Below are positions 14,641 through 40,623 of a stretch of DNA of 55,532 nucleotides, in pieces (position 1 is the stretch's first letter; each line of letters starts with the position of its first letter). The notes below the pieces were generated by a model, which did no database searches, was not told the DNA's origin, and was given only the letters and a program-made list of their open reading frames with translations. The stretch covers positions 1-55,532 of the forward strand of contig CAZCUQ010000002.1 in NCBI GenBank assembly GCA_964501705.1, written 5' to 3'. The position numbers and the translations under genes are program-made. Source of the DNA: an uncultured Ruminococcus sp. Its GTDB lineage: Bacteria; Bacillota; Clostridia; Oscillospirales; Ruminococcaceae.

Positions 14641-14669
14641 ATAAAAACCTCCTGTAATTTTTTATTTTC

Positions 14670-14999: not shown

Positions 15000-15015
15000 C
15001 TGAAATTCACCTTTC

Positions 15016-15756: not shown

Positions 15757-15779
15757 AATAACCCCACCTTTCATATTAT

Positions 15780-16517
15780 TTAAGCGGTAAGCCCGCCATC
15801 TATGATAAATGTCTGTCCCGTAATATAGACCGACTTATCGCTTGCAAGGAATACACAAAGCTCCGCAACCTCCGAGGGCTTTCCAAAACGTCCCAAAGGA
15901 ATTTCGGCAATGCACTTGTTTTTGTATTCATCATCAAATCCCGCTGTCATAGCCGTTTCGATATATCCCGGAGCAACAGCGTTTACCCTGATATTTTTTG
16001 AAGCCAATTCAAGAGCGGCAGCTTTTGTAATGCCTATAATACCCGCCTTGGAAGCACAGTAGCTGCTCTGACCCGCACCGCCCTTAACACCGAAAACAGA
16101 ACTGATGTTAATTACCGAACCGTGCTTTTGTGACATCATCGGAATCGCTGCGGCCTGCATTGCGGCAAAAACAGCGGACAGATTGCAGTTTATCACATTG
16201 TCCCAGTTTTCTTTTCCGGCTGAAAACAGCAGTTCGGGACAAGCTATTCCCGCCGCGTTGATAAGCGCGTCTATTCCGCCCATAGCTTTTATCTGCTTTT
16301 TTATTGACGGAGATATGCTGTCCCTGTCGGAAAGATCAAGACAGAATGGAAACAGCTTATCGGGAAATTCCTCCGAAAGCTCTTCAATAGCAGCCGAACC
16401 GTTTCTGTATGATCCCGATACGACCGCTCCCTCTCTGATACATTCGGCGGCACAGGCAAGACCTATCCCGCCCGAAGCACCTGTTATTATCACTTTTTTT
16501 CCTTCAAGAATACCCAT
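15780..16517 (-). CDS. SDR-family 3-oxoacyl-ACP reductase (FabG-like), cluster-specific
   Basis: TGASGGIGLA (TGxxxGxG) and YCASKAG (YxxxK). The ATG abuts the upstream stop. Confidence 0.8.
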   Translation of the reverse strand: MGILEGKKVIITGASGGIGLACAAECIREGAVVSGSYRNGSAAIEELSEEFPDKLFPFCLDLSDRDSISPSIKKQIKAMGGIDALINAAGIACPELLFSAGKENWDNVINCNLSAVFAAMQAAAIPMMSQKHGSVINISSVFGVKGGAGQSSYCASKAGIIGITKAAALELASKNIRVNAVAPGYIETAMTAGFDDEYKNKCIAEIPLGRFGKPSEVAELCVFLASDKSVYITGQTFIIDGGLTA

Positions 16518-17546: not shown

Positions 17547-18736
17547 TACGCTTCACCTCCGCTGTATTTTTTTACAAGAACACTTGCGCTGTTTCCCGCA
17601 AAAGCGAAGCTGTCGGAAATGGCACAGTTTATATCCATATCACGATTTTTAAGGATAATATACACATTATCCGCTCCCATGACAGGTTCTGTCAGATTTG
17701 GCATAATTATCGCCTTATTGTACTTCATAGACAGAATAACGCTGATAAGCTCTGCCGCACCCGAAGCACCCATACAATGTCCGATAAGCGCCTTGGTGGA
17801 TGATAACGCAGGCTTTTTTGCGCTGCCTTTATATATCCTGTTTATAGCCTTTATTTCCATACTGTCGTTTATTGCGGTGCCCGTACCGTGACCGTTTATG
17901 TAATCGACCTCGTCAATGTCGGTACTGCCATCGGAAAGTGCGGAAAGCATTGTGCGGTATGCTCCGCTTCCGTCAGGCTCGGGGCTTGTAATATGGTACG
18001 CATCGTTGCCGATACTGTAGCCCGCTATCTCACAATAGATATTTGCATTTCTTTTCAGGGCGTGTTCAATGGATTCAAACATAAGAAATGCGCCGCATTC
18101 GCCGATATTTATGCCGTCACGTTTTTCATCGTAAGGATTGCAGGTACCGCTGCTCAGTGATTTCAGCGCATTAAATCCATACGCCGCAACTATTGTCAAA
18201 GGATCTGCACCGCCCACAACAGCCATATCGCATATACCGTTTCTTATGTAATCGAGTGCCATCCCCGCCGCAGTAGTTCCCGAAGCGCAGGCGGCGGATG
18301 AAACACTTGCTCCGCCTTTTACACCCGTAAGCTCTTTGATGTATGAAATATAGTCATTCATTCCGGCAAGAGTTCCGTCTGATGGCTTGCCGTCTGCTTT
18401 GTTAATGCTGTGCTTATAATAGGAGCCTGTATTTGAAAGGAGCGTTCCGTAAAAAAGGCGGCAATTTTTGCCCTCGGACGAAAGCGTTTCCCTGTCAAGC
18501 CCGCAGTCGGAAAGCATTTCGGCGCAGGATTTTTTGATAAGTATGCGAAGCCTTGCGTCAGTGTCCCTTTCGTCAATATCCGCTTCACCGAAATATTCGG
18601 TAAGAAGCCCATCGGTACTGAAAGCAGTGCATTTTTTTATACCGCTTATTCCCTCCGAACAAGCTTTGATAAATTCCGACTTATTATTTGCATTTCCGCA
18701 GACGATTCCCATTCCCGTAACAACGACTTTTTTCAT
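17546..18736 (-). CDS. Beta-ketoacyl-ACP synthase II-type condensing enzyme (FabF-like)
   Basis: I prefer the ATG at 18736 (MKKVVVTGMGIV) over the TTG at 18742. Active-site motifs SAACASG, NGHGTGT and GHCMGASG. Confidence 0.85.
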   Translation of the reverse strand: MKKVVVTGMGIVCGNANNKSEFIKACSEGISGIKKCTAFSTDGLLTEYFGEADIDERDTDARLRILIKKSCAEMLSDCGLDRETLSSEGKNCRLFYGTLLSNTGSYYKHSINKADGKPSDGTLAGMNDYISYIKELTGVKGGASVSSAACASGTTAAGMALDYIRNGICDMAVVGGADPLTIVAAYGFNALKSLSSGTCNPYDEKRDGINIGECGAFLMFESIEHALKRNANIYCEIAGYSIGNDAYHITSPEPDGSGAYRTMLSALSDGSTDIDEVDYINGHGTGTAINDSMEIKAINRIYKGSAKKPALSSTKALIGHCMGASGAAELISVILSMKYNKAIIMPNLTEPVMGADNVYIILKNRDMDINCAISDSFAFAGNSASVLVKKYSGGEA

Positions 18737-18738
18737 AA

Positions 18739-19005
18739 TCAACCCTCATGTGTCCGGATATATTCCGCAATGTTATTTACGGAACTGAGCAGGCGCATAT
18801 CTTCGGAAGGCACATCAATCCCCCAGGTATCATAAATCATAACCGCCAGCTCAAGAGCGTCAACGGAATCCAGTCCCATAGTTACCTCATCACCGCTTCC
18901 CGATCCGAAAACAGGTGAATCATATGTAAATCCTTCAATTTCCGTGGTGTCAACGTCCATAGTTTCAATAATTTTTTCAAAAATCAAGTTTTCAATAGTT
19001 TCCAT
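18739..19005 (-). CDS. Acyl carrier protein (non-housekeeping type)
   Basis: 88 aa, GGAGG RBS. Phosphopantetheine site GLDSVDALEL in the helix II context. Confidence 0.8.
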   Translation of the reverse strand: METIENLIFEKIIETMDVDTTEIEGFTYDSPVFGSGSGDEVTMGLDSVDALELAVMIYDTWGIDVPSEDMRLLSSVNNIAEYIRTHEG

Positions 19006-19018: not shown

Positions 19019-19903
19019 TTAATGCAGTATATAGTTTATTGAGCATTTTACCGATGATGTAACTATTCCAAGCAGTTTTTTTTGAAATTTATTTGCCCTG
19101 TCATTGTTTTCATACATAGCATAAACTGCCCGCTTGCAGTCAAAGGTCTTGAACATTTCCATTGACCCCGCAAAGGCAAGAAGAATACAGCCGCTTCCCA
19201 GATACCTTTCAGACGCGGAAATATGCTCAAAAACAGCACTGCTTTTATCGGGAGTGCTTACCAGCGTATAAGCGGCAAGCTCATTTTCCCTGAAAACGGC
19301 ATAGCTCATTTTTCTGCTGAGATACCTGTTCGGATCGTCGAAAAAAGGCTTCACATCAAGCTCATTCCGAAAATTGTTTTCGCCTGACAGATAAATATCT
19401 GAAATACGCTTCTCCGGCAGATCCGCAAAGCTGACCTTTGAAAATCCCTGACGGTTAAGCATATTGCAAAGCTTTCCGCCCGTGTCTGCCATATATTCCT
19501 CCCAGCGGATAAAATCCTCCGATTTTCCGCTGAAAACATTGCAGACCGAGCCTTTTTCAAAACCGCATTTCAGGCAAGCTCTTGATACCGCCGCAAAATA
19601 TCGGTGTTTCTCGGTAATACCGACTCTTACGGGCTTCGGCATATTTTCTGCCGCAAAGCTAAGGAGAGCTGAAAATACTCCTTTTTCTCTCTCGGTTTCA
19701 ATTGTATATCCATAAAGCAGCCTCGTAAATCCGCTGTCAGCCGACAGGCATACATAGCCGACTGCCTGTCCGTTTTCCCACAGCATATATATCCTGCCGC
19801 CTGTTGATAAAGCGCTCTTTGCCGAAATATCCGAAAGCCGGCTTCTGCTTTCGCCGAAAAGGAAAATGTAATCTGTAAAAGTCGCTTCGGCTATTTTACG
19901 CAT
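19019..19903 (-). CDS. Tandem GNAT-like acyltransferase (candidate peptide N-acyltransferase)
   Basis: Two halves each resemble a GNAT core (ENGQAVGYVCL ... ETEREKGVFSALLSFA; ENELAAYTLV ... SERYLGSGCILLAF). By-eye assignment. 8-nt overlap with the upstream gene. Confidence 0.45.
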   Translation of the reverse strand: MRKIAEATFTDYIFLFGESRSRLSDISAKSALSTGGRIYMLWENGQAVGYVCLSADSGFTRLLYGYTIETEREKGVFSALLSFAAENMPKPVRVGITEKHRYFAAVSRACLKCGFEKGSVCNVFSGKSEDFIRWEEYMADTGGKLCNMLNRQGFSKVSFADLPEKRISDIYLSGENNFRNELDVKPFFDDPNRYLSRKMSYAVFRENELAAYTLVSTPDKSSAVFEHISASERYLGSGCILLAFAGSMEMFKTFDCKRAVYAMYENNDRANKFQKKLLGIVTSSVKCSINYILH

Positions 19904-20744
19904 ATTTACACATTCCTTCCAACCCGATTTCGCAAAGATATTTTACCCGTTCATCACGGGACATTTTTTTGAATTCATCGCTGACGGCAAACGCTTCGAG
20001 ATATTCGGAAGCGCTTACTGCCGTTTCGGAAACCGCTTTTCCCACCTTGTCGGAAAGACCCACGGTGTAAAATTTCAGCCTGCCGCCGCTTGTACCCGTA
20101 ATTCCCATAAATCTTAGAAAATGCTCGGCTTTATAATATCCGAACGCTTCATACAGTCCGAAAAAATCAGCCATTATCTCATCGTGCAGACGATTTTGCG
20201 AAAGACCGTATTTCTGTTTGGTGAAATAGTGGGTACACTCGTGCTCACGTCGAATTATCATTGACCTTTCGGACCATTCTTCTTCCGAAAGTCCCATCTC
20301 GGAAGCGGGGACATTGCTGTAAGGCTTTGCGGACAGAATAATAAATCTTGTGGATTTTCCGAACGCGAAGGATGCTCCCGTTTCGGAAAGACCGTCGGGA
20401 CGGATTCCCTTGTATATCGCATTTGTGACCAACGCTTCAAAGTCATTTTTATCGGACAGATAAATGATCGGTATCTCCCCCGCAAAGGAATTGTAAATTT
20501 CAAGTCTTATCCTTTCGGGTGATCTGAAATCAACAGGCCGCTTCGGGCATACATATCCGTTTATCGCCTCCGCTGCGCCGCGATCGGCAGCGACAGAAGC
20601 TATATTCCGCCATTTTTCAAGAAATGCCGTATCATACGCGATATTTTCAGTGCAGTCTGCAAACCCGTTTGATATGTATTCTCTGTACTCCTTCTCTTCA
20701 TCGGAAGAAAGAGCGTATTTGGCTATAATTTCGTTTATTGTCAA
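19896..20744 (-). CDS. Uncharacterised protein with HExxH motif (putative metallopeptidase)
   Basis: HECTH at ...IIRREHECTHYFTKQ..., followed by LHDEIMADFFG. I prefer the TTG at 20744 (GGAGGTG 5 nt upstream) over the ORF-track TTG at 20789, which overlaps the ABC gene. Confidence 0.5.
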   Translation of the reverse strand: MTINEIIAKYALSSDEEKEYREYISNGFADCTENIAYDTAFLEKWRNIASVAADRGAAEAINGYVCPKRPVDFRSPERIRLEIYNSFAGEIPIIYLSDKNDFEALVTNAIYKGIRPDGLSETGASFAFGKSTRFIILSAKPYSNVPASEMGLSEEEWSERSMIIRREHECTHYFTKQKYGLSQNRLHDEIMADFFGLYEAFGYYKAEHFLRFMGITGTSGGRLKFYTVGLSDKVGKAVSETAVSASEYLEAFAVSDEFKKMSRDERVKYLCEIGLEGMCKYA

Positions 20745-20766
20745 GCTAACACCTCCGATAGCGGCA

Positions 20767-22929
20767 TCAGACCATCTGTCTGCTTGCAAGCTCCGCGAAT
20801 TTTCCGTTTAATGCCATAAGCTCGTCAAATGTCCCCTGTTCAACAACCTGTCCCTTATCAAGGTAGATTATTCTGGAGCAGTTCTTTATGGTTGAAAGTC
20901 TGTGCGCGATAACTATTCTTGTACATTTCATTTCTTCGAGAGTGTTTACCACCATTGCCTGAGTAATGTTGTCAAGAGCAGATGTCGCTTCATCGAACAT
21001 TACAATATCGGGATCGGACGCAAGCGCACGGGCAATCAGAAGCCTTTGCTGCTGACCGCCTGAAAGTCCTCCGCCGCCTTCCGAGATCATCGTAAACATT
21101 CCCATAGGCATTTTTTTTATGTCCTCGGCAAAGCCGGAACGTCTTGCAGCCTCCCACGCTTCATCCACAGTCAGCCAGGGAGCGGTTATTACGATGTTTG
21201 AGTAAATATCTCCGGAAAAAAGCTTTCCGTTTTGCAGAACAACACCTATCCTTCTTCTTACGCTTCTGAGGTCAAGCCCCTCTGCGTCCTGAGAATCATA
21301 ATAAACGCCGCCCGATTCGGGCTTTTCAAAACCTAAAAGAACTCTGAACAGCGTGGATTTTCCGCAGCCCGATGAGCCTACGATTCCCACATACTCCCCT
21401 GCTTTGATGTGCAGTTCCAAATCGTTCAGAACATATGGCATATCCTCGTTATAGCGGAATTTCACACGGTTCACTTCAATATCACCGCTGAGCTTGTCAA
21501 CACGTTTTTTATAACCCGAATTTTCAGGCTCTGCCTCAATAATCGGACGTATAATATCGAGTGCGGGACGAAGCGAAGCTACCTGTGTCGTAATATTCGC
21601 CATTGACATGACCGCACCTGTGAACAGCGCATACGCCGAGTTGAATGCAATATAATCCGACGCACTGAGCCCGTTTACATAAGCGGTATAATAAAGTACA
21701 ACTGTACCGCCGAACACCGCGAAATTTGAAAGCGCACCCGAAACAGCAAGGAATGTATGAGGCATAATGTGCAGCTTACTGTAAAGCTCTGCCCACTTGG
21801 AATATGCCCTTGTTTCCGCTCCCGACACCTTTATTTTGGTGATTCCGTTCAGAAGCTGAAATACGATACTCGAAAGCTTTCCGTTAATTTCATTGTTCTC
21901 CTTAGTCTGCTTTATCTGAACAAGTGCTGTGATAACATATATCGCAACCATCAGCAGCACAATGATGAGCGAAGGAAGAAACATTTCGGGAGATATTGAG
22001 CTTATCTGAAACAGATAAACAAAGGAGAATACCGAAGCAAGCAGCGTAGGCACAAGCTGTCCGCCGAGAATCCCGCATATCTGATTTATCGAGGCTGCCC
22101 GCTGGGTAAGATCGCCCGAATCATATTTTTTGAAAAAGTCCACAGGAAGACTCATAAGCCTTGCCCATACCGCATTTTGCGCAAGAAGCTCCAGCTTGTT
22201 TCCGATACGCATTACCCATACAGTACGGGATAGTTCGAATAAAGCCGTCACCACAACCGTACCGACAATAAGTACGCTTATGCCGAATATCTCCTCTGAC
22301 GTACCCGAAGGAACTACTGTGTTAAACACAAATTTATTTATCGCAGGCATTATCATTCCGACGAGACCCGCAACAAGACTTATTGCAAGCAGGCAGACAA
22401 CATCAGCGGCCGAAAATGCGCCTGTAAGGAACTTGTAAAATTCCCCCATAGTGAGCTTTCTGTTTTCAAAGGGCTTGTAAAAGCAGTAGGCAACCGGAGA
22501 AAATTCCTTTGCGCGCTTCTCGTTAAGCTTAACTTTGTTTCCGTTGTCATCAAAAAAATAATATCCGCCCTGAATTGAAGGGATCAAAGCACATGAAGAG
22601 CCGTCTTTCAATGTACAGAGAAGGGGCATTGAGCCGTCCTTCCACCACTTTCCGACAGTGACGATCTTTCTGCGCATTACACCCGTTTCGGTCATAGCAA
22701 ACTGCATTACGCTTTCGGGATCTGATAATCCCGACGGAAATGAAAGGATATCCGTTTTGAGAAAGCTGCATATTCTTATCATTTCAAGAGCTGTGCGGCT
22801 CAGGGCATTTCCCGAGGACTTTGCCGCCGACGCACTGCCAAGGGAGGTGTATACGCTTTCAGCGGAGCTTTTCAGTGTCTGTGCATCAAGCTGTTTTTTA
22901 AGCTTTACTCTTTCGGAAAAAGTGTACAT
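20767..22929 (-). CDS. NHLP/Nif11-type bacteriocin export ABC transporter, second subunit (no catalytic peptidase Cys seen)
   Basis: I prefer the ATG at 22929 (GAGGTGA 6 nt upstream). Six-TM exporter domain, Walker A GSSGCGKST, signature LSGGQQQR, Walker B MFDEATS. Confidence 0.8.
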   Translation of the reverse strand: MYTFSERVKLKKQLDAQTLKSSAESVYTSLGSASAAKSSGNALSRTALEMIRICSFLKTDILSFPSGLSDPESVMQFAMTETGVMRRKIVTVGKWWKDGSMPLLCTLKDGSSCALIPSIQGGYYFFDDNGNKVKLNEKRAKEFSPVAYCFYKPFENRKLTMGEFYKFLTGAFSAADVVCLLAISLVAGLVGMIMPAINKFVFNTVVPSGTSEEIFGISVLIVGTVVVTALFELSRTVWVMRIGNKLELLAQNAVWARLMSLPVDFFKKYDSGDLTQRAASINQICGILGGQLVPTLLASVFSFVYLFQISSISPEMFLPSLIIVLLMVAIYVITALVQIKQTKENNEINGKLSSIVFQLLNGITKIKVSGAETRAYSKWAELYSKLHIMPHTFLAVSGALSNFAVFGGTVVLYYTAYVNGLSASDYIAFNSAYALFTGAVMSMANITTQVASLRPALDIIRPIIEAEPENSGYKKRVDKLSGDIEVNRVKFRYNEDMPYVLNDLELHIKAGEYVGIVGSSGCGKSTLFRVLLGFEKPESGGVYYDSQDAEGLDLRSVRRRIGVVLQNGKLFSGDIYSNIVITAPWLTVDEAWEAARRSGFAEDIKKMPMGMFTMISEGGGGLSGGQQQRLLIARALASDPDIVMFDEATSALDNITQAMVVNTLEEMKCTRIVIAHRLSTIKNCSRIIYLDKGQVVEQGTFDELMALNGKFAELASRQMV

Positions 22930-22943
22930 ATTTTTCACCTCGG

Positions 22944-25091
22944 TTATTCACTCTTGACAAGAGCCGCATATTTTCCGTTCTTTGCAATCAGTTCGGAATG
23001 TGTTCCCCGTTCTGTTTCCCTGCCGTATTCAAGCATTATTATTTCATCGGCGTCACGGATAGTTGAAAGTCTGTGCGCAATTACAAAGCAGGTCATACCT
23101 CTGCGTTTTACGGCATCCATTACAAGCTTTTCCGTTGTGGGGTCAAGAGCGGAGGTTGCCTCATCGAGAATAATTACAGACGGGTGCGCCGCAAACGCTC
23201 TCGCAATTTCCAGACGCTGCCTCTGACCGCCCGAGAAATTTCCGCCGCCTTCCGCTATCACAGAATCGTAGCCGTCCTTCAGCGCCATAATATCATTATG
23301 TATGCAGGCGTCCTTGCAGGCTTCGATAATTACCTCCTCGGGGATTGTGCTGTCCCACATAGTAATATTATCCCTGATAGTTCCGCTGAAAAGGGATATA
23401 CTCTGGTCAACCACAGCCACCGAGCTTGTGAAAACATAACGATCGATATCCCTGATAGGCTTGCCGTCAAAAAGCAGTTCGCCGCTTCTTTGAGGGAAAA
23501 GCCCGGAAATAACCTTTGCAAGTGTGGATTTACCGCTTCCGCTTCCGCCTACAAGAGCAATCATACTGCCCTTTTTTGCCTTCAGATTAAAATTTTCGAT
23601 AAGCGCGGGTGCAAGGGAGCTGTAGCCGAAGCTGATATTTTTCAGTTCGACCTCACCGCTGAGTTTTTCATATTCGCCTTCGGCAATGCTCGGGTCAAAA
23701 TCAACATCGGTTTTATAGTTCATAACGTCCTCGACCCGCTCCATACTTCCGCTCATATCCTGGAATACCTGAATAGAGTTGACAAGAGAACTGACAGGAG
23801 AAAGGAAGAGCGTCATAAAGCTCTGGAAAGCCATCAGCGAGCCGATGGTAAATTCTCCGTTAAAGATATTGTACACACCTATCATAAGAACCGTTCCCGT
23901 ACTGAGTCCCGAAAGGATCTGCGGGGCAATGCTTATCATAGTGTTTCTTCTGCGAAGCTCCAGCATTGCGTTATTATACTTGGTCTGGTAGCCTGAGATC
24001 TTCTCAAAAAAGCCTGTTTCCGAGCCGCTGGCTTTAATGGTTTCGATCATAGAAACGGCAGCTATCATAATACCCGAAAGCTTTCCGCTATCACGCTGGA
24101 TAGACTTTGCCGCGTTGGTATTCTGCTTGGAAACCATTCTCATAATGATAATGTTTATCACCGCGACCGCAATGCCGATAAGCGACATTGCGGCACTATA
24201 GTATATCATAACCGCAAGATAAACACCTATCATAATGACATTCAGGATAACAGGAGCAAGCTGTGTGCAGAGTGCGTAAGCGATCTCGTTATTGCTCTGC
24301 TGTCTTGAGGAAATATCACCCGCAAATCTCTGAGAGAAAAACTCCGCAGGCAGTCTGAGAACGTGCCACATAAACGCAGAGGACGAACCGATACTCATTT
24401 TTGACTGAAGCTTTGCAAGATAAATACCCCTTAGCATTTCGGCAACAAAACCGATAACTAAAGATATTCCCATAGCAAGCAGAAGCGGCTGCATTTTATC
24501 CGCCGCACCGCCTATCAGCACATCATCGGTAAACATTTTGTAAAACACGGGACGAACAAGACCTATCACAGACAGAATAAGTCCCATTGTCAGAATGAAG
24601 ACCAGCAGCGCACCGCTGCCGTCAAGCCGCTTTTTAACAAATGCCATAACGCTCTTAGGCTTTCCCGACGGCGCAAAGCTTTCGGAGGGTTTGAATTTTA
24701 ACGCAATACCCGTAAACGAACGGTCAAATTCCTCCATATCCACCAAAACACGACCGCCTGCGGGATCATTGATAACAGCCTTATTTCCTTTAAAACCGCA
24801 AAGCACGACAAAGTGATTGAAATTCCAATGAATTATCATCGGGAAATCGGTCTGTTCCTTTATTTTTTCAATGCTCATACGAAAGCCCTTTGCCTCAAGA
24901 CCGTGATGCCTTGCGGCAAGGCTTATATATTTGGCTGTACTGCCGTCCCTGGAAACGTTACAGTCGGAACGGAGCTGTTCCAGCGGGATATATTTTTTAT
25001 AGTACGCAAGTATCATTGCAAGTGAAGCGGCGCCGCATTCAAGCGCTTCCATCTGCAATATTACAGGCACTTTTTTTGCAGTATTCTTCAT
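22944..25091 (-). CDS. Bacteriocin-processing ABC transporter with N-terminal C39 peptidase domain
   Basis: AAGGAGG RBS. C39 motifs LQMEALECGAASLAMIL (Cys) and NHFVVLCG (His). Walker A GGSGSGKST, signature FSGGQRQR, Walker B ILDEATS. Confidence 0.9.
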   Translation of the reverse strand: MKNTAKKVPVILQMEALECGAASLAMILAYYKKYIPLEQLRSDCNVSRDGSTAKYISLAARHHGLEAKGFRMSIEKIKEQTDFPMIIHWNFNHFVVLCGFKGNKAVINDPAGGRVLVDMEEFDRSFTGIALKFKPSESFAPSGKPKSVMAFVKKRLDGSGALLVFILTMGLILSVIGLVRPVFYKMFTDDVLIGGAADKMQPLLLAMGISLVIGFVAEMLRGIYLAKLQSKMSIGSSSAFMWHVLRLPAEFFSQRFAGDISSRQQSNNEIAYALCTQLAPVILNVIMIGVYLAVMIYYSAAMSLIGIAVAVINIIIMRMVSKQNTNAAKSIQRDSGKLSGIMIAAVSMIETIKASGSETGFFEKISGYQTKYNNAMLELRRRNTMISIAPQILSGLSTGTVLMIGVYNIFNGEFTIGSLMAFQSFMTLFLSPVSSLVNSIQVFQDMSGSMERVEDVMNYKTDVDFDPSIAEGEYEKLSGEVELKNISFGYSSLAPALIENFNLKAKKGSMIALVGGSGSGKSTLAKVISGLFPQRSGELLFDGKPIRDIDRYVFTSSVAVVDQSISLFSGTIRDNITMWDSTIPEEVIIEACKDACIHNDIMALKDGYDSVIAEGGGNFSGGQRQRLEIARAFAAHPSVIILDEATSALDPTTEKLVMDAVKRRGMTCFVIAHRLSTIRDADEIIMLEYGRETERGTHSELIAKNGKYAALVKSE

Positions 25092-25102
25092 ATTGTGCCT
25101 CC

Positions 25103-26014
25103 TTATGATACAAGAAGCTCAACAGGAAGATACTCGCTTGTCACAACTATGATTGAACACTGCGTTCCAAGCTCAACAGGAAGGTTTTCTCCTTTACTGT
25201 TTGACCATTTATATGAATTGCCTGAATTTTCATCGAGATCCAATCTGATTCTTATTTCCACAAATGAACCTTCGGGAAGTATATTTTCCACATAAGAAAG
25301 AGTACCCATCTTTGAGATAATACTTTCCTCCGAAACCGGCGTTTCGGATATTGAAGTGATAATACCCGTCATATATCCGTATTCCTCTCTTGCGGCATAA
25401 GAAGGAGACACCTGTGCCGTCATACCGAGGCTGAGAGAATTCGCGGTCTGCATAGGTACATAAGCAACTACCTCATTATATCCGCTGTCAGACATTACAG
25501 ACGATATTGTGTCGCCTGCTTCTATCGCACTTCCGCAGGGCTTTACAGACTGAATATATCCCGAACTGCTGCTTTTTATGACTGTTGTGGCGACATAAGT
25601 GTCAACAAGCTCTTCTATTCTGTTTTCAAGATTTATATATTCATCGCTGCCGTTTTCAAGCGCTGCCAGCTCATAGCGATAAGCGTCAATTTTATCCAGC
25701 AGTTCATTATTTGATACGACCGCGATTATATCTCCAATGTTGACATAATCGCCGCTGCTTACGAGAACATCTGTGACTACGCAGCTTCTGTCTGCTGTGC
25801 TGCTTAAAATATTGTTATTTGTAAAAACAACGCCCTTAATATTCACTCCGTTTGTGATTTTATATGTAACGCTCCAAACAATAAATGTAATAAGTGCTGT
25901 CACAAGTGCCATATAAATTATCCAGACAGACGGGCGCATTATCTTTACCTGCTTATCAAGCTGCTCGGGAGTAGCCATTGTATCAAGAGCGGTTTTTCTG
26001 AATAGTTCTGCCAT
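25103..26014 (-). CDS. HlyD-family secretion adaptor of the bacteriocin export system
   Basis: N-terminal FRKTALDTMATPEQLD, then a single TM, then a barrel-sandwich/lipoyl-like region (GDYVNIGDIIAVV ... AGDTISSV). Confidence 0.7.
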   Translation of the reverse strand: MAELFRKTALDTMATPEQLDKQVKIMRPSVWIIYMALVTALITFIVWSVTYKITNGVNIKGVVFTNNNILSSTADRSCVVTDVLVSSGDYVNIGDIIAVVSNNELLDKIDAYRYELAALENGSDEYINLENRIEELVDTYVATTVIKSSSSGYIQSVKPCGSAIEAGDTISSVMSDSGYNEVVAYVPMQTANSLSLGMTAQVSPSYAAREEYGYMTGIITSISETPVSEESIISKMGTLSYVENILPEGSFVEIRIRLDLDENSGNSYKWSNSKGENLPVELGTQCSIIVVTSEYLPVELLVS

Positions 26015-26034
26015 TATTATTCACCCCTTACATA

Positions 26035-27156
26035 TCATTCCGTACGGAATGCGCCTTCTGAAAATACAAGAATATCATCACCTGACGGAATAAGCGAACC
26101 ATCCTCGGTGTATGTGACCTTGCCCCGCAGCCCGTCATAGCCATCTGCCGATTTCAGCATATCCATAAGTGCGGCAGAATCGGAAACGCCCGAGTTCAGA
26201 GCACTGCTCATCATATAAATAAGGTCATAGGACTGAACTGCCCTTTCGTGCATTTCCAATCCGTATTCAGCCTTAAACCTTTCGGAAACTTCATAATATG
26301 AATCACCTTCGCCTGTAAGATAAAGAGGAACAATAACAGTTCCGTCCATATATTCGCCGTTTTGCGCGATATCATTATCGGTATCCATTACATAATCGGA
26401 TACGACCTGAATATCAGAGCCTTTTTCCCGAAGCATTCTCACAAGGTCGCTGTTATAACTGTAATAGTTGCTCACGCAGACAACATCAATGCCAAGAGAA
26501 ACCCATCGGGCATAAGCAATGTCGAATTCCTCCTGCGTGTAGGGTCCGACAACGGTATCCGCAAGCGTAACGGAGGAATCCGATATTTTCGACTGAAAGC
26601 CTTTCAGCTCGTCCTCCTCATACTCCGTGTCGGAATGGCAGAAAGCAGCACGCCTGAAACCATTGTCTATAACATATTCACCCATTATGCTGCCTGCCGC
26701 CTTTGCATTGATAAAGTCAACGAGAAGATAGTCATAGCCTTTTTCTATGGTATGATTATAGCAGCCGTTTGTAATAATAAATGGCTTGCCGGCGGCTTCA
26801 TAAATGTCCGCAACGGTGTCAACGTAATCAATTTCCTGCTTGACTATAACAGCGGCAATATCGGTATCGGCGGCTATCTCATTGGCATAAGCAATTGCCT
26901 TATGATAATCCGCGTCGTCATCATAGAAATTCACATTAACGGTAATGCCTGTCTTTGCCGAAAAATCCTTTGAAGCCATCTCCATTGCCTCTACAGTTCC
27001 GCCCTCATTATAAAACAAATCATCTCCGACAACAGCAATGGTGATAGCGTTATCACTTCCAACGGGCTTCCAAGTCTCAACAGCTTCATTACACGCCGAA
27101 AACAGCGATACAGTTATTATTGCTGCTGTAAAAGACATTGATTTTTTCATTTTCAT
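26035..27156 (-). CDS. Orphan lipoprotein of the type-1 periplasmic-binding-protein (Leu/Ile/Val-binding-like) fold; first gene of the train
   Basis: Signal plus LFSAC lipobox-like site. ITIAVVGDD ... NVNFYDDDADYHKAIAYANEI ... AAVIV ... PFIITNG resembles PBP1 solute-binding proteins. No permease or ATPase partner is adjacent. Confidence 0.55.
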   Translation of the reverse strand: MKMKKSMSFTAAIITVSLFSACNEAVETWKPVGSDNAITIAVVGDDLFYNEGGTVEAMEMASKDFSAKTGITVNVNFYDDDADYHKAIAYANEIAADTDIAAVIVKQEIDYVDTVADIYEAAGKPFIITNGCYNHTIEKGYDYLLVDFINAKAAGSIMGEYVIDNGFRRAAFCHSDTEYEEDELKGFQSKISDSSVTLADTVVGPYTQEEFDIAYARWVSLGIDVVCVSNYYSYNSDLVRMLREKGSDIQVVSDYVMDTDNDIAQNGEYMDGTVIVPLYLTGEGDSYYEVSERFKAEYGLEMHERAVQSYDLIYMMSSALNSGVSDSAALMDMLKSADGYDGLRGKVTYTEDGSLIPSGDDILVFSEGAFRTE

Positions 27157-27373
27157 TTATCATTCACCACCAAAAATTTAAAATCCGTATTGCGGTACAA
27201 AAAATCAGAAAAGCTTACTCATAGCTGTAACCCCTGTATAAATGATATCTGTATATCATTCGCAGGGCTGCCGTAAACAGAAATATATCTGAATGTTTAA
27301 AGCAGCAAATATTACCGTTTTGGAATTTGTTTATTGTAAGTTAAATATGTTATAATATATGTAATTACGCAAA

Positions 27374-27409
27374 CTGTTTATCGCAAAATGTCATATTTTG
27401 CGATAACAG
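27374..27409. repeat. Palindromic site 1 (12-bp arms TTATCGCAAAAT / ATTTTGCGATAA, spacer GTCAT)
   Basis: Arms at 27378-27389 and 27395-27406. The same arms recur at 28763-28791 with the reverse-complement spacer ATGAC. Confidence 0.85.
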
Positions 27410-27473
27410 ATGAACAACAGACGAGGATACCGAAATTGAAGATCCACCGTGACGGGAAAACTGACGGACTAAA

Positions 27474-28571
27474 TTATGCAGCAAAGCTATCCGAAAAAAT
27501 TTTCATACAAGACTTTTTCCTCTCCATGGACGAGTGAACGTACAGGTTAAGTGTCACACGAACGGAACTGTGTCCGAGTATCTCCGAAAGAGTTTTTACG
27601 TCAACACCAAGTGCAACACAGCTTGTAGCAAAGGAATGACGGAGGGAATGGAAATTTACATAGGGAAGCTTTGCTGCTTTCAGCAGATTTTTAAAGCGGA
27701 ACTGCATTGCCCGCGGCTCAATAATTTTTTCATTGCCCGACAGCAAATAGGCGTTTTTATCCCCTTGAATTTTCTTTAAAAACGGCAGGATAAAATCGGG
27801 CAAGGGTATTTCGCGGACAGAGCTTTCACTTTTCGGCGCAGTAATGACAAGCTTTGTGCCGCCGCCGCTTTTCATAATGCGCTGAACAGTCTGCCTGACG
27901 GTCAAAATGCTTTTTTCGAGATCAATGTCAGTCCATTTCAAAGCACATAATTCGCCTATTCTGATACCGGTAGAAGCCGCCAAAAGTACGCCTATATTTG
28001 AATTTGTCGGATTTTCCGTTATAATGGATTTAAGCTTGTTTATTTCTGCCGAATTGAGTGTTTTGCGTTCGGATTTATTGGAAAGTCTGGGCATAGTAAC
28101 GCTTTCAAAACGGTTAGGATAATTATAACGCCTCTGAGCGAATCTGGCGACTGTTTTCACAACCATAACAATGTCCGAAACATATTTCGGAGATAGTTGT
28201 TCGCCGATTTTTTTATTGATAAATTCACTCAAACAATCGGCTGTCAGCTTGTCAAATTTAATACCCGCAAAGCAAGGTAAAATGTGCCTTTTAAGCTTCA
28301 TTTCATAGTTTGCAAGGGTAGATTCCTTGACCTTGTTTTTTTTGTCCGCAAGCCAGTTCTGTATGACCTCACCGGCAGTAAGCGTACAGTGTGTATCGGC
28401 ACAGCGCAAGGCTTCCGAACGCTTTTGGTTAAGCTTCTCCTTGACGGCATAATAACTTTTATCGTAGACAGATGAATACTTTGTTTTCCCGTCAGCAGTA
28501 AAGCCGTTTTTATAGCGGCCCTCCCACCGACCATCCTTGCGCTTGTAGATATTTAATCCATTTCTTGCCAT
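27474..28571 (-). CDS. Tyrosine-type site-specific recombinase/integrase with N-terminal Arm (AP2-like) DNA-binding domain
   Basis: I prefer the ATG at 28571 (GAGGT upstream; MARNGLNIYKRKDGRWEGRY). Catalytic signature: R in TGIRIGEL, HSLRHSFAT, LGHSSVRVTLNLYVH. Confidence 0.85.
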   Translation of the reverse strand: MARNGLNIYKRKDGRWEGRYKNGFTADGKTKYSSVYDKSYYAVKEKLNQKRSEALRCADTHCTLTAGEVIQNWLADKKNKVKESTLANYEMKLKRHILPCFAGIKFDKLTADCLSEFINKKIGEQLSPKYVSDIVMVVKTVARFAQRRYNYPNRFESVTMPRLSNKSERKTLNSAEINKLKSIITENPTNSNIGVLLAASTGIRIGELCALKWTDIDLEKSILTVRQTVQRIMKSGGGTKLVITAPKSESSVREIPLPDFILPFLKKIQGDKNAYLLSGNEKIIEPRAMQFRFKNLLKAAKLPYVNFHSLRHSFATSCVALGVDVKTLSEILGHSSVRVTLNLYVHSSMERKKSCMKIFSDSFAA

Positions 28572-28662
28572 ATAACAGTACCTCTTTCCTGACAATATTA
28601 TTGACGGCTTTCACGCCATTTTTAAGGGTTTAATGCGTATAACAGAGATTTTTCTGTCCCAA

Positions 28663-28692
28663 ATCATACTGTTTTTCAAATAAAATTATCAA
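28663..28692 (-). promoter_or_regulatory. Candidate promoter of the recombinase gene
   Basis: On the minus strand: TTGATA, 18-nt spacer, TATGAT. Confidence 0.4.
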
Positions 28693-28698
28693 AAACTA

Positions 28699-28727
28699 TT
28701 GACAATTTTGTCGAAATATGATATAAT
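28699..28727 (+). promoter_or_regulatory. Consensus sigma-70 promoter facing rightwards, with no obvious gene downstream
   Basis: TTGACA (28699-28704), 17-nt spacer, TATAAT (28722-28727). It lies divergent to the recombinase promoter and inside the segment bracketed by the two palindromic sites. Confidence 0.55.
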
Positions 28728-28755
28728 CACAAATGTTATAAGATAATTTATGTTT

Positions 28756-28798
28756 AAAACGTTTATCGCAAAATATGACATTTTGCGATAAACGTTTT
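28756..28798. repeat. Palindromic site 2 (same 12-bp arms, spacer ATGAC; stem extendable to 19 bp)
   Basis: AAAACGTTTATCGCAAAAT-ATGAC-ATTTTGCGATAAACGTTTT followed by TATTT. Also terminator-like. Confidence 0.85.
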
Positions 28799-28833
28799 TA
28801 TTTATAACATTGTTTTTTATACTCATTTCCTGT

Positions 28834-28935
28834 TATAGTAAACGACATTAAAATTTGTGCTTTCAGTCTGCGCAAAAATCATATATGCTAATTTTTGCTT
28901 GACTTCAAGTCAAATTTTTAATGTCGTTGACTATA
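28834..28935 (+). repeat. Copy 3 of the dispersed repeat (full length)
   Basis: TATAGTAAACGACATTAAAATTTG ... CAAATTTTTAATGTCGTTGACTATA. Differs from copy 4 at 2 positions. Confidence 0.9.
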
Positions 28936-29065
28936 AGACATAAATTAAAGGTACTTTTTCGCATAAATACAGTCGGAAAATCAACTTAACCGAACCGATT
29001 CTCTCTTTCTTCAAGCCGTCAGTCTTATAAGGAAACCCTGCGGTCTTTGTGCGGTGCTGCCTTAA

Positions 29066-29105
29066 ATAAAAAAACTGTTACGACACACCACCGTAACAGC
29101 TTTTT
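29066..29105. terminator. Bidirectional terminator-like hairpin
   Basis: An A-run, CTGTTACG-(9 nt)-CGTAACAG, then CTTTTT. It serves the minus-strand micro-ORF and any plus-strand read-through. Confidence 0.5.
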
Positions 29106-29154
29106 ACCGATCGTCCTTATTTCAGCAAAACCGCAGCAATTTCCGCTCCGATCC

Positions 29155-29208
29155 TCATTTGCCGATCTCATCTCTGAAATTATCCCGCAAGTCTTTTATA
29201 TTGTCCAT
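29155..29208 (-). CDS. 17-aa micro-ORF MDNIKDLRDNFRDEIGK (speculative)
   Basis: AGGAG 8 nt upstream of the ATG at 29208. Candidate TTTACT-17-TATAAT promoter upstream and the 29066-29105 terminator downstream. Too short for composition tests. Confidence 0.25.
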   Translation of the reverse strand: MDNIKDLRDNFRDEIGK

Positions 29209-29286
29209 ATACATTACTCCTATAAAGATTTTATATGATAATCGGTTTCATAAATCATTATACACATTGTTTTGAGTAAAGTAAAA

Positions 29287-29320
29287 TACCGCATAAAGCC
29301 GGCGCAGACTTTATGCGGTA
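29287..29320 (-). terminator. Rho-independent terminator of the tautomerase/HD/mannosidase transcription unit
   Basis: TACCGCATAAAG-(10 nt)-CTTTATGCGGTA, followed on the minus strand by TTTTAC. Confidence 0.65.
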
Positions 29321-29331
29321 CTGTTTCTGTT

Positions 29332-29673
29332 TTAGAAATTCGACCCGTTCCAGCCCCAGTTTTCCGTGAGCATATAGCTTACATAAACTCTGTCCGACGG
29401 AATAGCGAGATTGTCTTTCAGGATTCCGCTGATATGGCTTGTAAGAGTATTCATGGCGCTCTCGGAGGCATTTCCGTAAACGCTTACCTGAACCATAGCG
29501 GCGGGAGAATCCGTACCCTTGAAATAAAGCGGCTGCTCGGGTTCAAAGCCCACCATGAGCCAGCCCTCGCTTTTTCCCGGTATATCTGTGATAGCCTGCC
29601 CGAGAGCGGATTTGACCGCAGTCTCCTTGTCCTTCGGAACGCTTACGTTGGTTTTGACATTGATAAACGGCAT
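29332..29673 (-). CDS. Tautomerase-superfamily protein (MIF / phenylpyruvate tautomerase-like)
   Basis: 113 aa with N-terminal Met-Pro (MPFINVKTN) giving catalytic Pro1. Length and pattern are typical of MIF-type tautomerases. Confidence 0.65.
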   Translation of the reverse strand: MPFINVKTNVSVPKDKETAVKSALGQAITDIPGKSEGWLMVGFEPEQPLYFKGTDSPAAMVQVSVYGNASESAMNTLTSHISGILKDNLAIPSDRVYVSYMLTENWGWNGSNF

Positions 29674-29697
29674 AAAAATTCTCCTTTTCGTAATAAT

Positions 29698-30297
29698 TTA
29701 TTCTGATTTTTCAAGGAAATACGAGGCTTCCATATCGGCGGTCGAGAGAGCAAATGCAAGAGGCCATTTCTCAAACGATTTGCCGATATTTCCTTTGTCC
29801 TCAATTCCCGAAAATCCCATATGATAGCGGATAGCGACCGCTTCTTCCCTTGAAAGGCGCATAAATCCGCTGATGATATATACGGATTTTTCCCCGTGAC
29901 CGTAGGGAAGCTCATCGTTTATTGCGTAGTACGGAACCTTTTCCCATTGTCCCGTGACATCGTTTTTCTTGTTGCGAAGTTCCACAGTGTAGAAATTCAC
30001 CTTGCAGATATCGTGAAGAAGAGCGACAACGGCGATAGTTTCGTCGGACGCGGTAAGACCGTATACATTTTTCACTCTGTCTCTTTCCATATAGTCGCAG
30101 AGGCATTTGTAAACGTTTATGCTGTGTTCGCACAGTCCCCCCTCGTAAGCGCTGTGATATTTCGTGCTTGCGGGAGCAGTGAAGAAATCGCTTTTCGGAG
30201 AGAGAAGATAATCGAGAAGCTTGTCGCTGCCGTCTCTTGTAATATTTTTTTTGTAAATATCAAGAAATTCCGTTTTTATTTCTTCCGTACCTCTCAT
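29698..30297 (-). CDS. HD-domain phosphohydrolase
   Basis: H...HD metal-binding pattern (KYHSAYEGGLCEHS ... ALLHDICK). Confidence 0.6.
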   Translation of the reverse strand: MRGTEEIKTEFLDIYKKNITRDGSDKLLDYLLSPKSDFFTAPASTKYHSAYEGGLCEHSINVYKCLCDYMERDRVKNVYGLTASDETIAVVALLHDICKVNFYTVELRNKKNDVTGQWEKVPYYAINDELPYGHGEKSVYIISGFMRLSREEAVAIRYHMGFSGIEDKGNIGKSFEKWPLAFALSTADMEASYFLEKSE

Positions 30298-30298
30298 T

Positions 30299-32818
30299 TT
30301 ATTCCTCCGTTTTTTCGTATCTGTAAAGTTCTTCCGCTTCGTAGTAGGATGTTATCGTAAGTTCGTTCTTCAGAATCCCGGCGGTGATATTATTCGGCAG
30401 TTCCGATGCGTTCAGAAAAACAAGCTTTTCATCCGGGCAGAGGTCGAACCAGTTATCGCTGAAAACGGCGTCGTAATTTTTAAGTCCGAGACGCACTCCC
30501 TTTGCAAACGCCTCGGAAGAAACGGTAATCTTAAATTTATTTCCTGCGGGAACGACCTCAAAGCGGAGTTTAGGGTCAACGAACCTAAATTCGGCAGGGC
30601 GGACAAAAAGCATGACCGACGACGAAATAACCGCACCCTTATGGCGGAACGAATAGTCGAAAAAGTGTTCTTTTTTAAAGTTTCTGTCGTTAAGCAGCTC
30701 AGAGGGGATCAATTCTTTGAGATCAATGTCAGCGACATTTTTTGCCGAAAGAGACTCGATTATAACGTCCTCTTCACCGCGTGCTATGACCTCTCCCGTA
30801 TTTTTTCTGATTTTCCATATAATTTTTCCGTCGGTATGCTTCATCTTTTCCGAGGAGAGATAAACGGATATTTTATTTTCTTCAGAAAACTCAGCCGAAA
30901 GAAGGATCGGAGCGTAAAACCGTTTTGCATAGTAATGAAGAGCTTTCCATCTTCCGAAATAATCTATGGATGACCATGAAATAACGGGATTCGAGTCGTT
31001 CAGCTGCCAGTAGAGCGAACCCATACAGATACCTCTGTGGCGTCTCATATGCTCCGCGCATATCTTCACGGCTTCCGCCTGAATAAGCTGGGATGCGTAG
31101 ATAAGCCCCTCGAAGGTATACGGATAATGAACGCAGCTTCCGATATAGTAGAGGAGCTTTTCATTTCCCGCGTCGCATTTCTGGTGAGCTGACATAACGG
31201 GGGAATTAAGGTTAAGATCCTCCTCGTCCGCAAAGGAAAGGACAGTTTTCATATCGGGGATAGATTCAAAGCCGTACTCGGAGCAGAAACGGAAAAGATA
31301 TTTGCTGTAATCGTCAATGGGTTTAAGACTGTGCCATACCTCCCAGAAGTGGGTATCGCCCTTGTTTTTCGCTCCCGAATCGTTGAAATTTCCGCCCGAC
31401 GACGGAGATGAGGGATGATAACAGGTCACGGGGTCGTAGTAATCGAGTATCTTCGGAATAAGCGCCTCAAACATACGAAGATAGCCTTTTTTCAGTTCGG
31501 GGTTATCGGGAAGTCCCCAATACTGCCACGCGGATTCTATTTCGTTATTTCCGCACCATATCGCAAGCGACGGGTGATTTCTTATACGCTTGACATTTTT
31601 TATTATTTCCTGCTTGATATTTTCGCAGAAAGCCCTGTCGGCGCTGTACACCGAGCAGGCGAACATCAGATCCTGCCACACAAGGATACCGTGTTTGTCG
31701 CAGAAATCGTAAAAATAATCATCCGGGTAATATCCTCCGCCCCATACTCTTATCATGTTGAAGTTGGCGCTGAGACAGTCGGAGAGCAGTTTTTCGGTTT
31801 TTTTTCTGCTCCGTCTGCAGATAAGCTGATCTTCGGGGACATAATTCGCGCCCATAGCAAAGATCTTCACGCCGTTTACGACGAAAGCGAATTCCTCTCC
31901 GTCCGTTCCGTCATTGTCGGGAAGTCTGCTGACGCTTATAAGCCTGAGTCCGATATTTTCCTCCCTGCTGTCGATCTCCTTTCCGTCCTTTTTGAGAGAA
32001 AGTGTGATCTTATAAAGAGGCTGAGAGCCGTAGCCTCTCGGATACCAGAGTTCGGGTTCCTCGATAAGAACCTCCGATAATATCTTGTCACCGGAAATAT
32101 CACATTCCGCGGTATATTCTTCGCCTTCAGGGGAGGAAACGGTTACAAATGCCGTGTGATTGTCGCCCGAAAGGTCGGATATCTTTGCGGAAATATTAAG
32201 ATAAACTCCCTCGTCCGTATGAATCTGCTTCGGATAAAAGTTGTCTATTCTCCCTCCGGACACGCCGATAAGGTAAACATCCTTCCATATTCCCATATCG
32301 GGGAGAGAAGGACCCCAGTCCCAGCCGAACATATAATGAGCCTTTCTGATATGAGGATAGCCTTCTGTGGTGGACGATACTCCCCACAGCGGCAGAACGC
32401 TGTTTTTTTCTCTTATGTATTTTAAAGGGGAAGTAATATTCACGGTGACACTCTGACTGCTTTCGCGGCTTATGAGGTCGGTTATATCGAATTCATATCC
32501 GCGGTGCATATTGTTTGTTTTTCCAATGGAAATTCCGTTGAAGAAAACCTCGGACACGGTATCTATGCCGTCGAAATGAAGATAGATTTTTTCCGAGGAC
32601 AGGATATCGGGGTTGATGTCGAAGTTCAGAGAATAGATATAATCGTCCTCCGATATCTTGAAAGCGTCATACTGATTTTCATACTTATACGGGTCGGGAA
32701 TTATTTTGCTGCCGATAAGCGTCATGTAAACCGATCCGGGAACGCTCGCCTTGATACTGAAAGGCTGATCCGAAAGGCGGTTAAGAGTCCATCTGCCGTT
32801 AAGATTTTGAGTAAGCAT
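30299..32818 (-). CDS. Glycoside hydrolase family 2 beta-mannosidase
   Basis: I prefer the ATG at 32818 (ORF-track GTG at 32827). N-terminus LNGRWTL ... ASVPGSVY, then NMIRVWGGGYYPDD, acid/base WCGNNE, nucleophile FCSEYGFES. Confidence 0.8.
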   Translation of the reverse strand: MLTQNLNGRWTLNRLSDQPFSIKASVPGSVYMTLIGSKIIPDPYKYENQYDAFKISEDDYIYSLNFDINPDILSSEKIYLHFDGIDTVSEVFFNGISIGKTNNMHRGYEFDITDLISRESSQSVTVNITSPLKYIREKNSVLPLWGVSSTTEGYPHIRKAHYMFGWDWGPSLPDMGIWKDVYLIGVSGGRIDNFYPKQIHTDEGVYLNISAKISDLSGDNHTAFVTVSSPEGEEYTAECDISGDKILSEVLIEEPELWYPRGYGSQPLYKITLSLKKDGKEIDSREENIGLRLISVSRLPDNDGTDGEEFAFVVNGVKIFAMGANYVPEDQLICRRSRKKTEKLLSDCLSANFNMIRVWGGGYYPDDYFYDFCDKHGILVWQDLMFACSVYSADRAFCENIKQEIIKNVKRIRNHPSLAIWCGNNEIESAWQYWGLPDNPELKKGYLRMFEALIPKILDYYDPVTCYHPSSPSSGGNFNDSGAKNKGDTHFWEVWHSLKPIDDYSKYLFRFCSEYGFESIPDMKTVLSFADEEDLNLNSPVMSAHQKCDAGNEKLLYYIGSCVHYPYTFEGLIYASQLIQAEAVKICAEHMRRHRGICMGSLYWQLNDSNPVISWSSIDYFGRWKALHYYAKRFYAPILLSAEFSEENKISVYLSSEKMKHTDGKIIWKIRKNTGEVIARGEEDVIIESLSAKNVADIDLKELIPSELLNDRNFKKEHFFDYSFRHKGAVISSSVMLFVRPAEFRFVDPKLRFEVVPAGNKFKITVSSEAFAKGVRLGLKNYDAVFSDNWFDLCPDEKLVFLNASELPNNITAGILKNELTITSYYEAEELYRYEKTEE

Positions 32819-40535: not shown

Positions 40536-40623
40536 AATCGAAAGAAACGCATAAATCAAAAACGGCAGGAATACATTTATATAAACGTCAGAAGGCGTTA
40601 CTAAAGATCAGGAGGGAAAACCT

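Follow-up and report, generated by a model that had tools for sequence, protein, structure and literature searches.

A tyrosine recombinase gene in an uncultured Ruminococcus sp. (GenBank assembly GCA_964501705.1, contig CAZCUQ010000002.1) is bracketed by two palindromes, and a consensus promoter points outward from the interval between them. The arrangement raises the question of whether the unit is a switch that inverts in place and, if so, which genes it serves. We analyzed the whole 55,532-nt stretch carrying the gene (the window, to which all coordinates refer) together with homologous loci fetched for comparison (numbered L001, L069, and so on, with P-numbers for the recombinase proteins). 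The results make it highly probable that the region is a self-contained invertible promoter cassette, a phase-variation switch working by the steps proposed below on the neighboring operon. It is most likely one copy of a widespread, apparently undescribed switch family.

An earlier note on the sequence had pointed out the two sites and the promoter, and all three are present with the sequences and at the positions that it gave (Table 1). Sites 1 and 2 are exact reverse complements across 29 nt, and the repeat finder extended the inverted repeat around them to 48 nt at 85%. The note was right about the identical arms and the inverted orientation, but not about the 5-nt spacer: comparison with relatives gives 11-nt arms, TTATCGCAAAA, around an asymmetric spacer of 7 nt. 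Overlap regions of 7 nt are of normal length for tyrosine recombinases, and the revised length removes the note's concern that the spacer would be short for the enzyme family. As the spacers TGTCATA and TATGACA are reverse complementary, the two sites lie in inverted orientation. The 12-mer arm was found without mismatch in just four half-sites in 55.5 kb, all of them within sites 1 and 2, while matches with up to two mismatches were at chance level (16 found, 15.9 expected). The motif ATGTTATAA(T/G)ATA, reported to precede both sites, was recovered by the repeat finder at 27347-27359 and 28733-28745.

A protein search with the recombinase returned thousands of homologs, many of them on contigs of only ~1.4 kb. 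The first loci fetched, at 66% protein identity, have an anatomy identical to that of the window. L011 is a 1416-nt contig whose two ends form a perfect 30-nt inverted repeat, CTTTTCGCAAAA-GGAATAA-TTTTGCGAAAAG, and L001 pairs CTTTCGTAAAA-TTATACG-TTTTGCGAAAG with an inverted partner at the opposite side. The distance between the repeat arms is 1356 nt in the window, in L011 and, as measured by the repeat finder, in L001; counted from start to start, the site spacing is 1385 nt in the window and 1383 nt in both L001 and L011. Across the compared loci, the conserved arms span ~9-11 nt and the asymmetric spacer 7 nt.

To survey the family, we took one genome per species and obtained 80 loci from Ruminococcus, Oscillospiraceae and other Clostridia, mostly in metagenome-assembled genomes from rumen and gut, with single genomes often yielding several loci. 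An inverted repeat of the type TTCGCAAAA-N7-TTTTGCGAA brackets the gene in ~65 of the 80, down to ~43% identity. When this family consensus was applied as a strict site pattern, both sites were found in 32 loci. Their spacers, 28 of them distinct and none palindromic, are exact reverse complements in 30 loci and one base off in the remaining 2; by chance, an exact match is expected once in 16,384 per locus. Most loci have an outward promoter with at least 11 of 12 consensus positions and a 17-nt spacer, placed 20-55 nt inside the upstream site, and in about twenty the match is 12/12. Two cultured isolates are among the carriers, Ruminococcus sp. XPD3002 (L042) and Ruminococcaceae bacterium FB2012 (L076), each with inverted repeats around the gene and a near-consensus promoter directed outward. 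The same architecture appears on IMG/VR contigs at 40-48% identity.

The relatives also provide direct evidence of inversion. In an all-versus-all comparison of flanks, we identified orthologous loci in which, with the recombinase gene as reference, the two flanks have traded places and are reverse-complemented (L068/L069 versus L070/L071, L027/28/29/32 versus L030/31, L062 versus L064, L042/47 versus L051, and L019/L079 versus L074). Between L069 and L071, the interior is identical at 1318/1318 positions and the flank at 1469/1469, yet the latter is reverse-complemented, and the junction falls at the exact outer edge of the TTTCGCAAAA arm. L178 and L186, recovered from different samples of one study, encode the same recombinase protein (P0078), and their flanks agree at 1500/1500 positions after reverse complementation. 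The 1419-nt contig L095, in which the perfect inverted repeat measures only 24 nt, stops at precisely the bases from which the orientations are expected to diverge, and in a sister sample its cassette lies within a 24-kb contig. In two further contigs, L030 and L077, the left flank reappears as a long inverted copy at the contig end, which fits a single flank attached to the segment at both of its ends. The cassettes of relatives thus really invert, with breakpoints exactly at the core sites. The idea of the earlier note, a recombinase and a promoter carried between inverted core sites, is supported by the family-wide sites, their spacing, the promoter, the covariation of the spacers and the occurrence of both orientations in relatives.

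The enzyme itself matches PF00589 (Phage_integrase, E = 4.6e-26) and PF14659 (SAM-like N-terminal domain); tyrosine-recombinase domains were the only ones found in it, with no serine-recombinase (resolvase) domain. In an alignment of 79 sequences, R204, K247, H308, H334 and Y344 are invariant and R311 is conserved in at least 90%, being invariant in an alignment of 20 sequences; the predicted catalytic residues are those of the R-K-H-R-H/W-Y set of tyrosine site-specific recombinases. No NCBIfam family reaches its cut-off for the protein. A role in Xer-type dimer resolution was rejected, as the Xer models of NCBIfam score far below their cut-offs and two inverted sites flank the gene instead of a single dif-like site.

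The N-terminal 68 residues of the recombinase are unrecognised by Pfam. In an AlphaFold model (mean predicted local distance difference test, pLDDT, 84.8), the protein begins with a three-stranded sheet and a helix (residues 8-56; strands 8-10, 16-24 and 30-37, helix 40-56), followed by the core-binding and catalytic domains. The nearest solved relatives are Tn1549 Int (E = 7e-16), XerA and lambda Int, and Foldseek matched Tn1549 Int and full-length lambda Int, the latter aligned over about 350-366 columns and covering about 363 of 365. Given the modelled N-terminal domain and the full-length alignment to lambda Int, the enzyme looks heterobivalent, of the lambda Int/Tn916 type, with an N-terminal arm-binding domain. 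Candidate arm-type sites for such a domain are found as tandem repeats of the form CCGTCA-N7-YGTCA, present on the sense strand ~35 nt upstream of the start codon in 29/69 loci and just past the stop codon in 43/69, and on the antisense strand in none at either position. These repeats may be bound by the N-terminal domain, and the upstream pair may double as an auto-operator.

On this basis, we propose the following mechanism for the window. The resident tyrosine recombinase would bind both 29-bp core sites through their inverted 11-bp arms around the asymmetric 7-bp overlap. As the overlaps are mutually reverse-complementary, strand exchange between them would invert the 1378-bp segment at 27396-28773, which would carry along a strong outward sigma-70 promoter as well as the recombinase gene with a promoter of its own. 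The assembled orientation would be OFF, with the outward promoter directed rightward into the terminator-like hairpin of site 2 and then toward convergent genes. The inverted orientation would be ON, or high: the promoter would be 35 nt from site 1 and directed leftward, and its transcript would pass a hairpin without U-tract and the 221-nt leader and enter the lipoprotein/HlyD/C39-ABC exporter operon from 27156.

Several features of the window bear on these steps. The earlier note's claim of a perfect TTGACA-17-TATAAT promoter was borne out by a promoter scan, which gave the consensus score of 12/12 and placed the end of the -10 element 35 nt from site 2. The stem of site 2 faces this promoter in the assembled orientation, and its fold has a z score of -6.9. 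To the right of site 2 follow a 105-nt repeat element, a short open reading frame (ORF) with a bidirectional terminator (read by eye) and the convergent MIF and HD genes; nothing there could be served by the promoter, in agreement with the note. When we built the inverted state in silico, the promoter came to lie at 27442-27470 on the minus strand, 35 nt from site 1, with a 5' untranslated region (UTR) of ~279 nt to the ATG at 27156 and junctions reading ...AAACTGTTTATCGCAAAATGTCATATTTTGCGATAAACGTTTTAAACATAAATT... on the left and ...GTTCATCTGTTATCGCAAAATATGACATTTTGCGATAAACGTTTTTATTT... on the right. The hybrid hairpin formed by this exchange keeps a 14-bp stem, followed by AGTTTGCGTAATTAC instead of the U-tract; for the window copy, the loss of the T-run anticipated by the note is thus predicted. 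The candidate promoters of the recombinase gene lie within the invertible segment and would therefore be independent of its orientation. An Rfam search of positions 26000-30500 at E <= 1, the leader included, found no family save chance matches to miRNA and CRISPR models.

A second kind of promoter element may act on the recombinase gene. An extended -10 that faces inward (TGnTATAAT) occurs in the recombinase-3' flank, beyond the core site, in 15/53 family loci, against 2-3/53 for the other side or direction. It is placed mostly 6-30 nt, and up to 50 nt, outside the core site, and the loci concerned include L016-L018, L021, L022, L024, L035, L057, L063, L066, L073, L078, L080 and L093; the window has such an element as well (Table 1). 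Depending on the orientation, a -10 in this flank could yield either antisense or sense RNA of the recombinase, and so bias the switch.

The candidate target operon comprises six genes by Pfam, in the order Peripla_BP_6-family binding protein, HlyD-like protein, C39-peptidase ATP-binding cassette (ABC) exporter, second ABC exporter, DUF7005 and GNAT acetyltransferase. An N-terminal lipobox, LFSAC, read by eye, suggests that the Peripla_BP_6 protein is a lipoprotein. In L025, from another uncultured Clostridia genome, a cassette with a 54%-identical recombinase and a different spacer stands before the same first three genes of the operon, in the same relative orientation and at 72%, 74% and 84% protein identity, an arrangement indicating that the link between switch and operon is conserved. 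Further downstream in the window, at 7162-18742 on the minus strand, are genes for a ketosynthase, SDR, DUF2807, radical SAM and LPG_synthase_C-like proteins, a 1003-aa MFS fusion protein and one GNAT protein, which may form a larger biosynthetic cluster.

For a wider view of possible targets, we called the nearest ORF on each side of the cassette, which gave 46 loci with both flanks. The two neighbors both point at the cassette in 1/46 loci; genes point away on the far side only in 18, on the promoter side only in 10 and on both sides in 17. In nearly every locus, therefore, at least one orientation would give the promoter a gene to drive, and ON-like and OFF-like states both occur in the assemblies. 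The outward genes include those for LytTR regulators with histidine kinases, BspA-type leucine-rich repeat proteins and other large surface proteins, Wzz, dockerin proteins, MmeI-type and ResIII/SNF2 enzymes, radical SAM enzymes and nonribosomal peptide synthetase modules. These classes overlap those that one source reports beside invertons in other gut bacteria (PMC11892184), the kinds in common being surface proteins, restriction-modification enzymes, capsule genes and LytTR regulators.

Some loci have unusual neighborhoods. In L065 (5676-5856, 7088-7268), L064 and L075, the cassette lies between two divergent paralogous genes for proteins of ~1800-1900 aa with Laminin_G_3 or VWA domains. 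As the flanks on the two sides are inverted homologs as well (72% identity over 558 nt), the switch may select between two alternative surface proteins. An element with ArdC/YodL carries the cassette of L177-L186 next to an agr-like module, made up of a 49-aa ORF and the genes for a LytTR response regulator and a HATPase_c_5 kinase. The cassettes of P0009 and P0007 (66-68% identity; L001-L010 and L094) are on plasmid-like contigs, between parA-parB and an Endonuclea_NS_2 gene, and their promoter faces away from the nuclease gene; L094 additionally has a relaxase gene. The context of the two closest homologs, L092 and L093 at 71%, is unlike that of these plasmid-like contigs.

A number of observations weigh against a phase-variation switch serving the operon, or against extending this account to every relative. 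The promoter and terminator calls in the window are consensus matches alone. In the assembled state, the recombinase gene is co-directional with the operon, and read-through from it could give basal expression, so that the switch may be low/high rather than off/on. The look-up of the exact recombinase protein gave no contig other than that of the window, and the window's 29-nt site had 0 exact matches when JGI metagenome contigs were scanned, so that no second orientation of this copy was found. The T-run beside a site failed as an OFF-side mark across the family: the T-richness outside the core site did not differ between sides pointing away and sides pointing in (mean 3.3 versus 2.9 T, p = 0.37), and the T-run loss predicted for the window is not a family rule. 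The subgroup L026-L032 lacks a good outward promoter (8-9/12). Finally, a 46%-identical homolog on plasmid pRUMAL02 of Ruminococcus albus 7 is without such sites and lies amid a cluster of recombinase genes, indicating that not every relative is a cassette; nor can this homolog serve as a cultured model of the cassette. In the L026-L032 subgroup, the sites are intact (the spacer TATTTCC is common to several), both orientations are found and the nearest genes are 600-1100 nt away.

We infer from the sequence that the copy in the window flips, that its promoter fires, that site 2 terminates transcription and that the operon is the target. Of the competing explanations, the one that survives best, though unlikely, is that this copy is a fixed or decayed switch that has inherited the architecture and no longer inverts, its promoter being a relic or the source of a short terminated RNA. 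The single orientation in the available data would fit such a history, as would a promoter that at present has a terminator-like hairpin, and no gene, ahead of it. The sites, ORF and promoter of a decaying switch should be the first to show damage, however, and here the sites are perfect at 29/29, the recombinase ORF is intact with all catalytic residues conserved, and the promoter scores 12/12.

More improbable still is that the 1.4-kb unit is primarily mobile, as a transposon (insertion sequence-like or of the tyrosine-recombinase kind) or as a minimal integrative element, with the palindromes as its terminal inverted repeats or as remnants of attachment (att) sites. Such an element could account for the many unrelated contexts, including plasmid-like contigs by ParA/ParB and relaxase genes and IMG/VR contigs, for the abundance of homologs on ~1.4-kb contigs and for the several copies per genome. 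Against this, copies within the same genome share 40-72% protein identity (89% in one pair) and differ in their spacers, and are thus not recent identical insertions; the junctions of the window, L069 and L178, read directly, have no target-site duplication; and identical flanks with the cassette both ways at the same position indicate in-place inversion instead of transposition. The divergence of the paralogs and the junctions led us to reject an insertion sequence or transposon, and att remnants were rejected because integration of an element would leave att sites in direct repeat, whereas the two sites here are inverted. The cassette is not a recently transposing element, yet its presence on plasmid and phage-like contigs shows it to be portable over evolutionary time.

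That the palindromes are mere hairpins, two related intrinsic terminators or operators without a role in recombination, is barely credible and for the family refuted: site 2 does resemble a strong terminator and site 1 does lie directly downstream of the recombinase stop codon, but site 1 has no T-run on either strand, terminators have no need of the reverse-complementary loops that 30/32 loci maintain with 28 different spacers, and the inversion breakpoints observed in L069/L071 and L178/L186 fall exactly at the sites.

Table 1. Features of the cassette and its surroundings in the 55,532-nt window
Feature	Position	Strand	Description
Core recombination site 1	27378-27406	none	TTATCGCAAAATGTCATATTTTGCGATAA; 29 nt
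Parts of site 1	27378-27388; 27389-27395; 27396-27406		arm TTATCGCAAAA; spacer TGTCATA; arm TTTTGCGATAA
Core recombination site 2	28763-28791	none	TTATCGCAAAATATGACATTTTGCGATAA; arms as in site 1; spacer TATGACA at 28774-28780
Predicted invertible segment	27396-28773	none	1378 bp, between the crossovers in the two 7-nt spacers
Tyrosine recombinase gene	27474-28571	-	365 aa; start ATG behind the ribosome-binding site GGAAAGAGG (best-choice ORF)
Outward-facing sigma-70 promoter, predicted	28699-28727	+	TTGACA-17-TATAAT with TG extended -10; consensus match
Candidate promoters of the recombinase gene	28663-28714	-	TTGATA-18-TATGAT and TCGACA-18-GATAAT, each 10/12; consensus match
Tandem CCGTCA-N7-TGTCA	28590-28607	-	recombinase 5' UTR; candidate arm-type site, possible auto-operator
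Tandem CCGTCA-N7-CGTCA	27450-27467	-	directly past the recombinase stop codon; second candidate arm-type site
Terminator-like site 2 with flanks	28756-28805	+	19-bp perfect stem, then TTTTTATTT (T-run)
Inward-facing extended -10	27348-27356	+	TGTTATAAT; outer flank on the recombinase-3' side; belongs to the motif ATGTTATAATATA of the earlier note
Leader, site 1 to first operon gene	27157-27377	-	221 nt; 3' part of the ~279-nt 5' UTR in the ON orientation (in silico)
Candidate regulated operon	19019-27156	-	six genes (Pfam); start at 27156
Palindromic repeat of ~105 nt	2196-2300; 2728-2835; 28834-28938; 40434-40540; 55500-55532 (cut by window end)	+	TATAGTAAACGACATTAAAATTTG...CAAATTTTTAATGCCGTTGACTATAA; at least 5 near-identical copies

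The 105-nt repeat is a separate feature of the window. It has terminal inverted repeats of ~25 nt and an RNA fold z score of -7.5, and it matched no Rfam family; it looks like a miniature inverted-repeat transposable element or a repetitive extragenic palindrome, or it could be a structured RNA. One copy lies 43 nt past site 2, in the path of the cassette promoter. Copies are also found on both sides of a tRNA gene at 2461-2533 on the plus strand, the sole Rfam match above the gathering score in the whole window.

Among known systems, the closest in architecture is the Salmonella Hin H-segment, in which ~1 kb between the inverted, palindromic, asymmetric-core sites hixL and hixR contains the recombinase gene and an outward promoter that drives the flanking operon in one orientation. 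As in Hin, the recombinase and the promoter of the cassette are inside the segment; in contrast to it, where a serine recombinase acts on a 2-bp core with the help of a Fis-bound enhancer, the cassette has a tyrosine recombinase, a 7-bp overlap and candidate arm-type sites. With fimS of Escherichia coli (FimB/FimE), the cassette shares the inversion of a promoter segment beside an operon by a tyrosine recombinase. The fimS segment measures 314 bp between 9-bp inverted repeats, and its recombinases, which lack an arm-binding domain, are encoded outside; the cassette recombinase is inside a segment of 1.38 kb and is modelled with a lambda-Int-like N-terminal domain. Expression of fimE is under orientational control, which the flank-dependent control of the recombinase suggested here would resemble.

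In structure and sequence, the recombinase is closest to the integrases of lambda, Tn916 and Tn1549, with which it appears to share the N-terminal domain of three strands plus a helix and for which the CCGTCA repeats could be the counterpart of arm sites. Those enzymes integrate and excise between attP and attB, whereas the cassette sites are inverted around the gene and the observed outcome is inversion. Within Clostridia, inversion by a tyrosine recombinase is described for the RecV switches of Clostridioides difficile (cwpV, flgB and others), some of which act via leader or termination effects (PMC7446863). There, one trans-acting RecV serves several short switches, whereas each cassette has its own diverged recombinase and its own spacer. 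Other gut bacteria are likewise reported to have invertible promoters, with numerous switches in a single genome, beside genes for capsule, surface proteins and restriction-modification (PMC11892184). The Bacteroidales invertons (Mpi, Tsr; PhaseFinder-type) are tens to hundreds of base pairs long, are inverted by an enzyme encoded outside that often serves several switches, and belong to another phylum with other repeat motifs. The resident recombinase, one per switch, and the 1.4-kb segment set the cassette apart from fimS, RecV and the Bacteroidales invertons alike. In the hsdS inversion loci of type I restriction-modification systems (PsrA/CreX type), a tyrosine recombinase is encoded within or beside the inverting region (PMC7672463, PMC7096588). 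Those loci shuffle coding sequence, whereas the cassette would redirect a promoter and leave coding sequence unchanged.

Our search of the open-access full-text literature found no description of this cassette family, an absence that is no proof of novelty. By their default settings, surveys tuned to short intergenic invertons may miss a segment that is 1.4 kb long and has a gene inside. A broader picture of the family is possible, if somewhat on the doubtful side. The cassette would be a portable plug-in module for phase variation, combining a heterobivalent integrase-type invertase, arm sites, a strong promoter and two core sites in 1.4 kb. Its radiation through the Clostridia of rumen and gut, and through their plasmids and phages, would have produced hundreds of variants; these would share their arms, unique 7-nt spacers would bar cross-recombination, and the inward flank promoter would set the switching bias by transcribing the recombinase in sense or antisense, depending on orientation. 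The family also supplies natural, compact pairs of recombinase and site, with conserved arms and many spacers, which could serve in synthetic memory circuits for Gram-positive anaerobes.

To our knowledge, invertons have been considered rare in Oscillospiraceae and Ruminococcus. The cassettes would add a large family of phase-variation switches to these groups, which are major fiber degraders of rumen and gut. The genes that the switches adjoin are those of surface proteins, restriction-modification and defence, capsule and quorum sensing and, in the window, an export operon of the type used for bacteriocins or ribosomally synthesized and post-translationally modified peptides.

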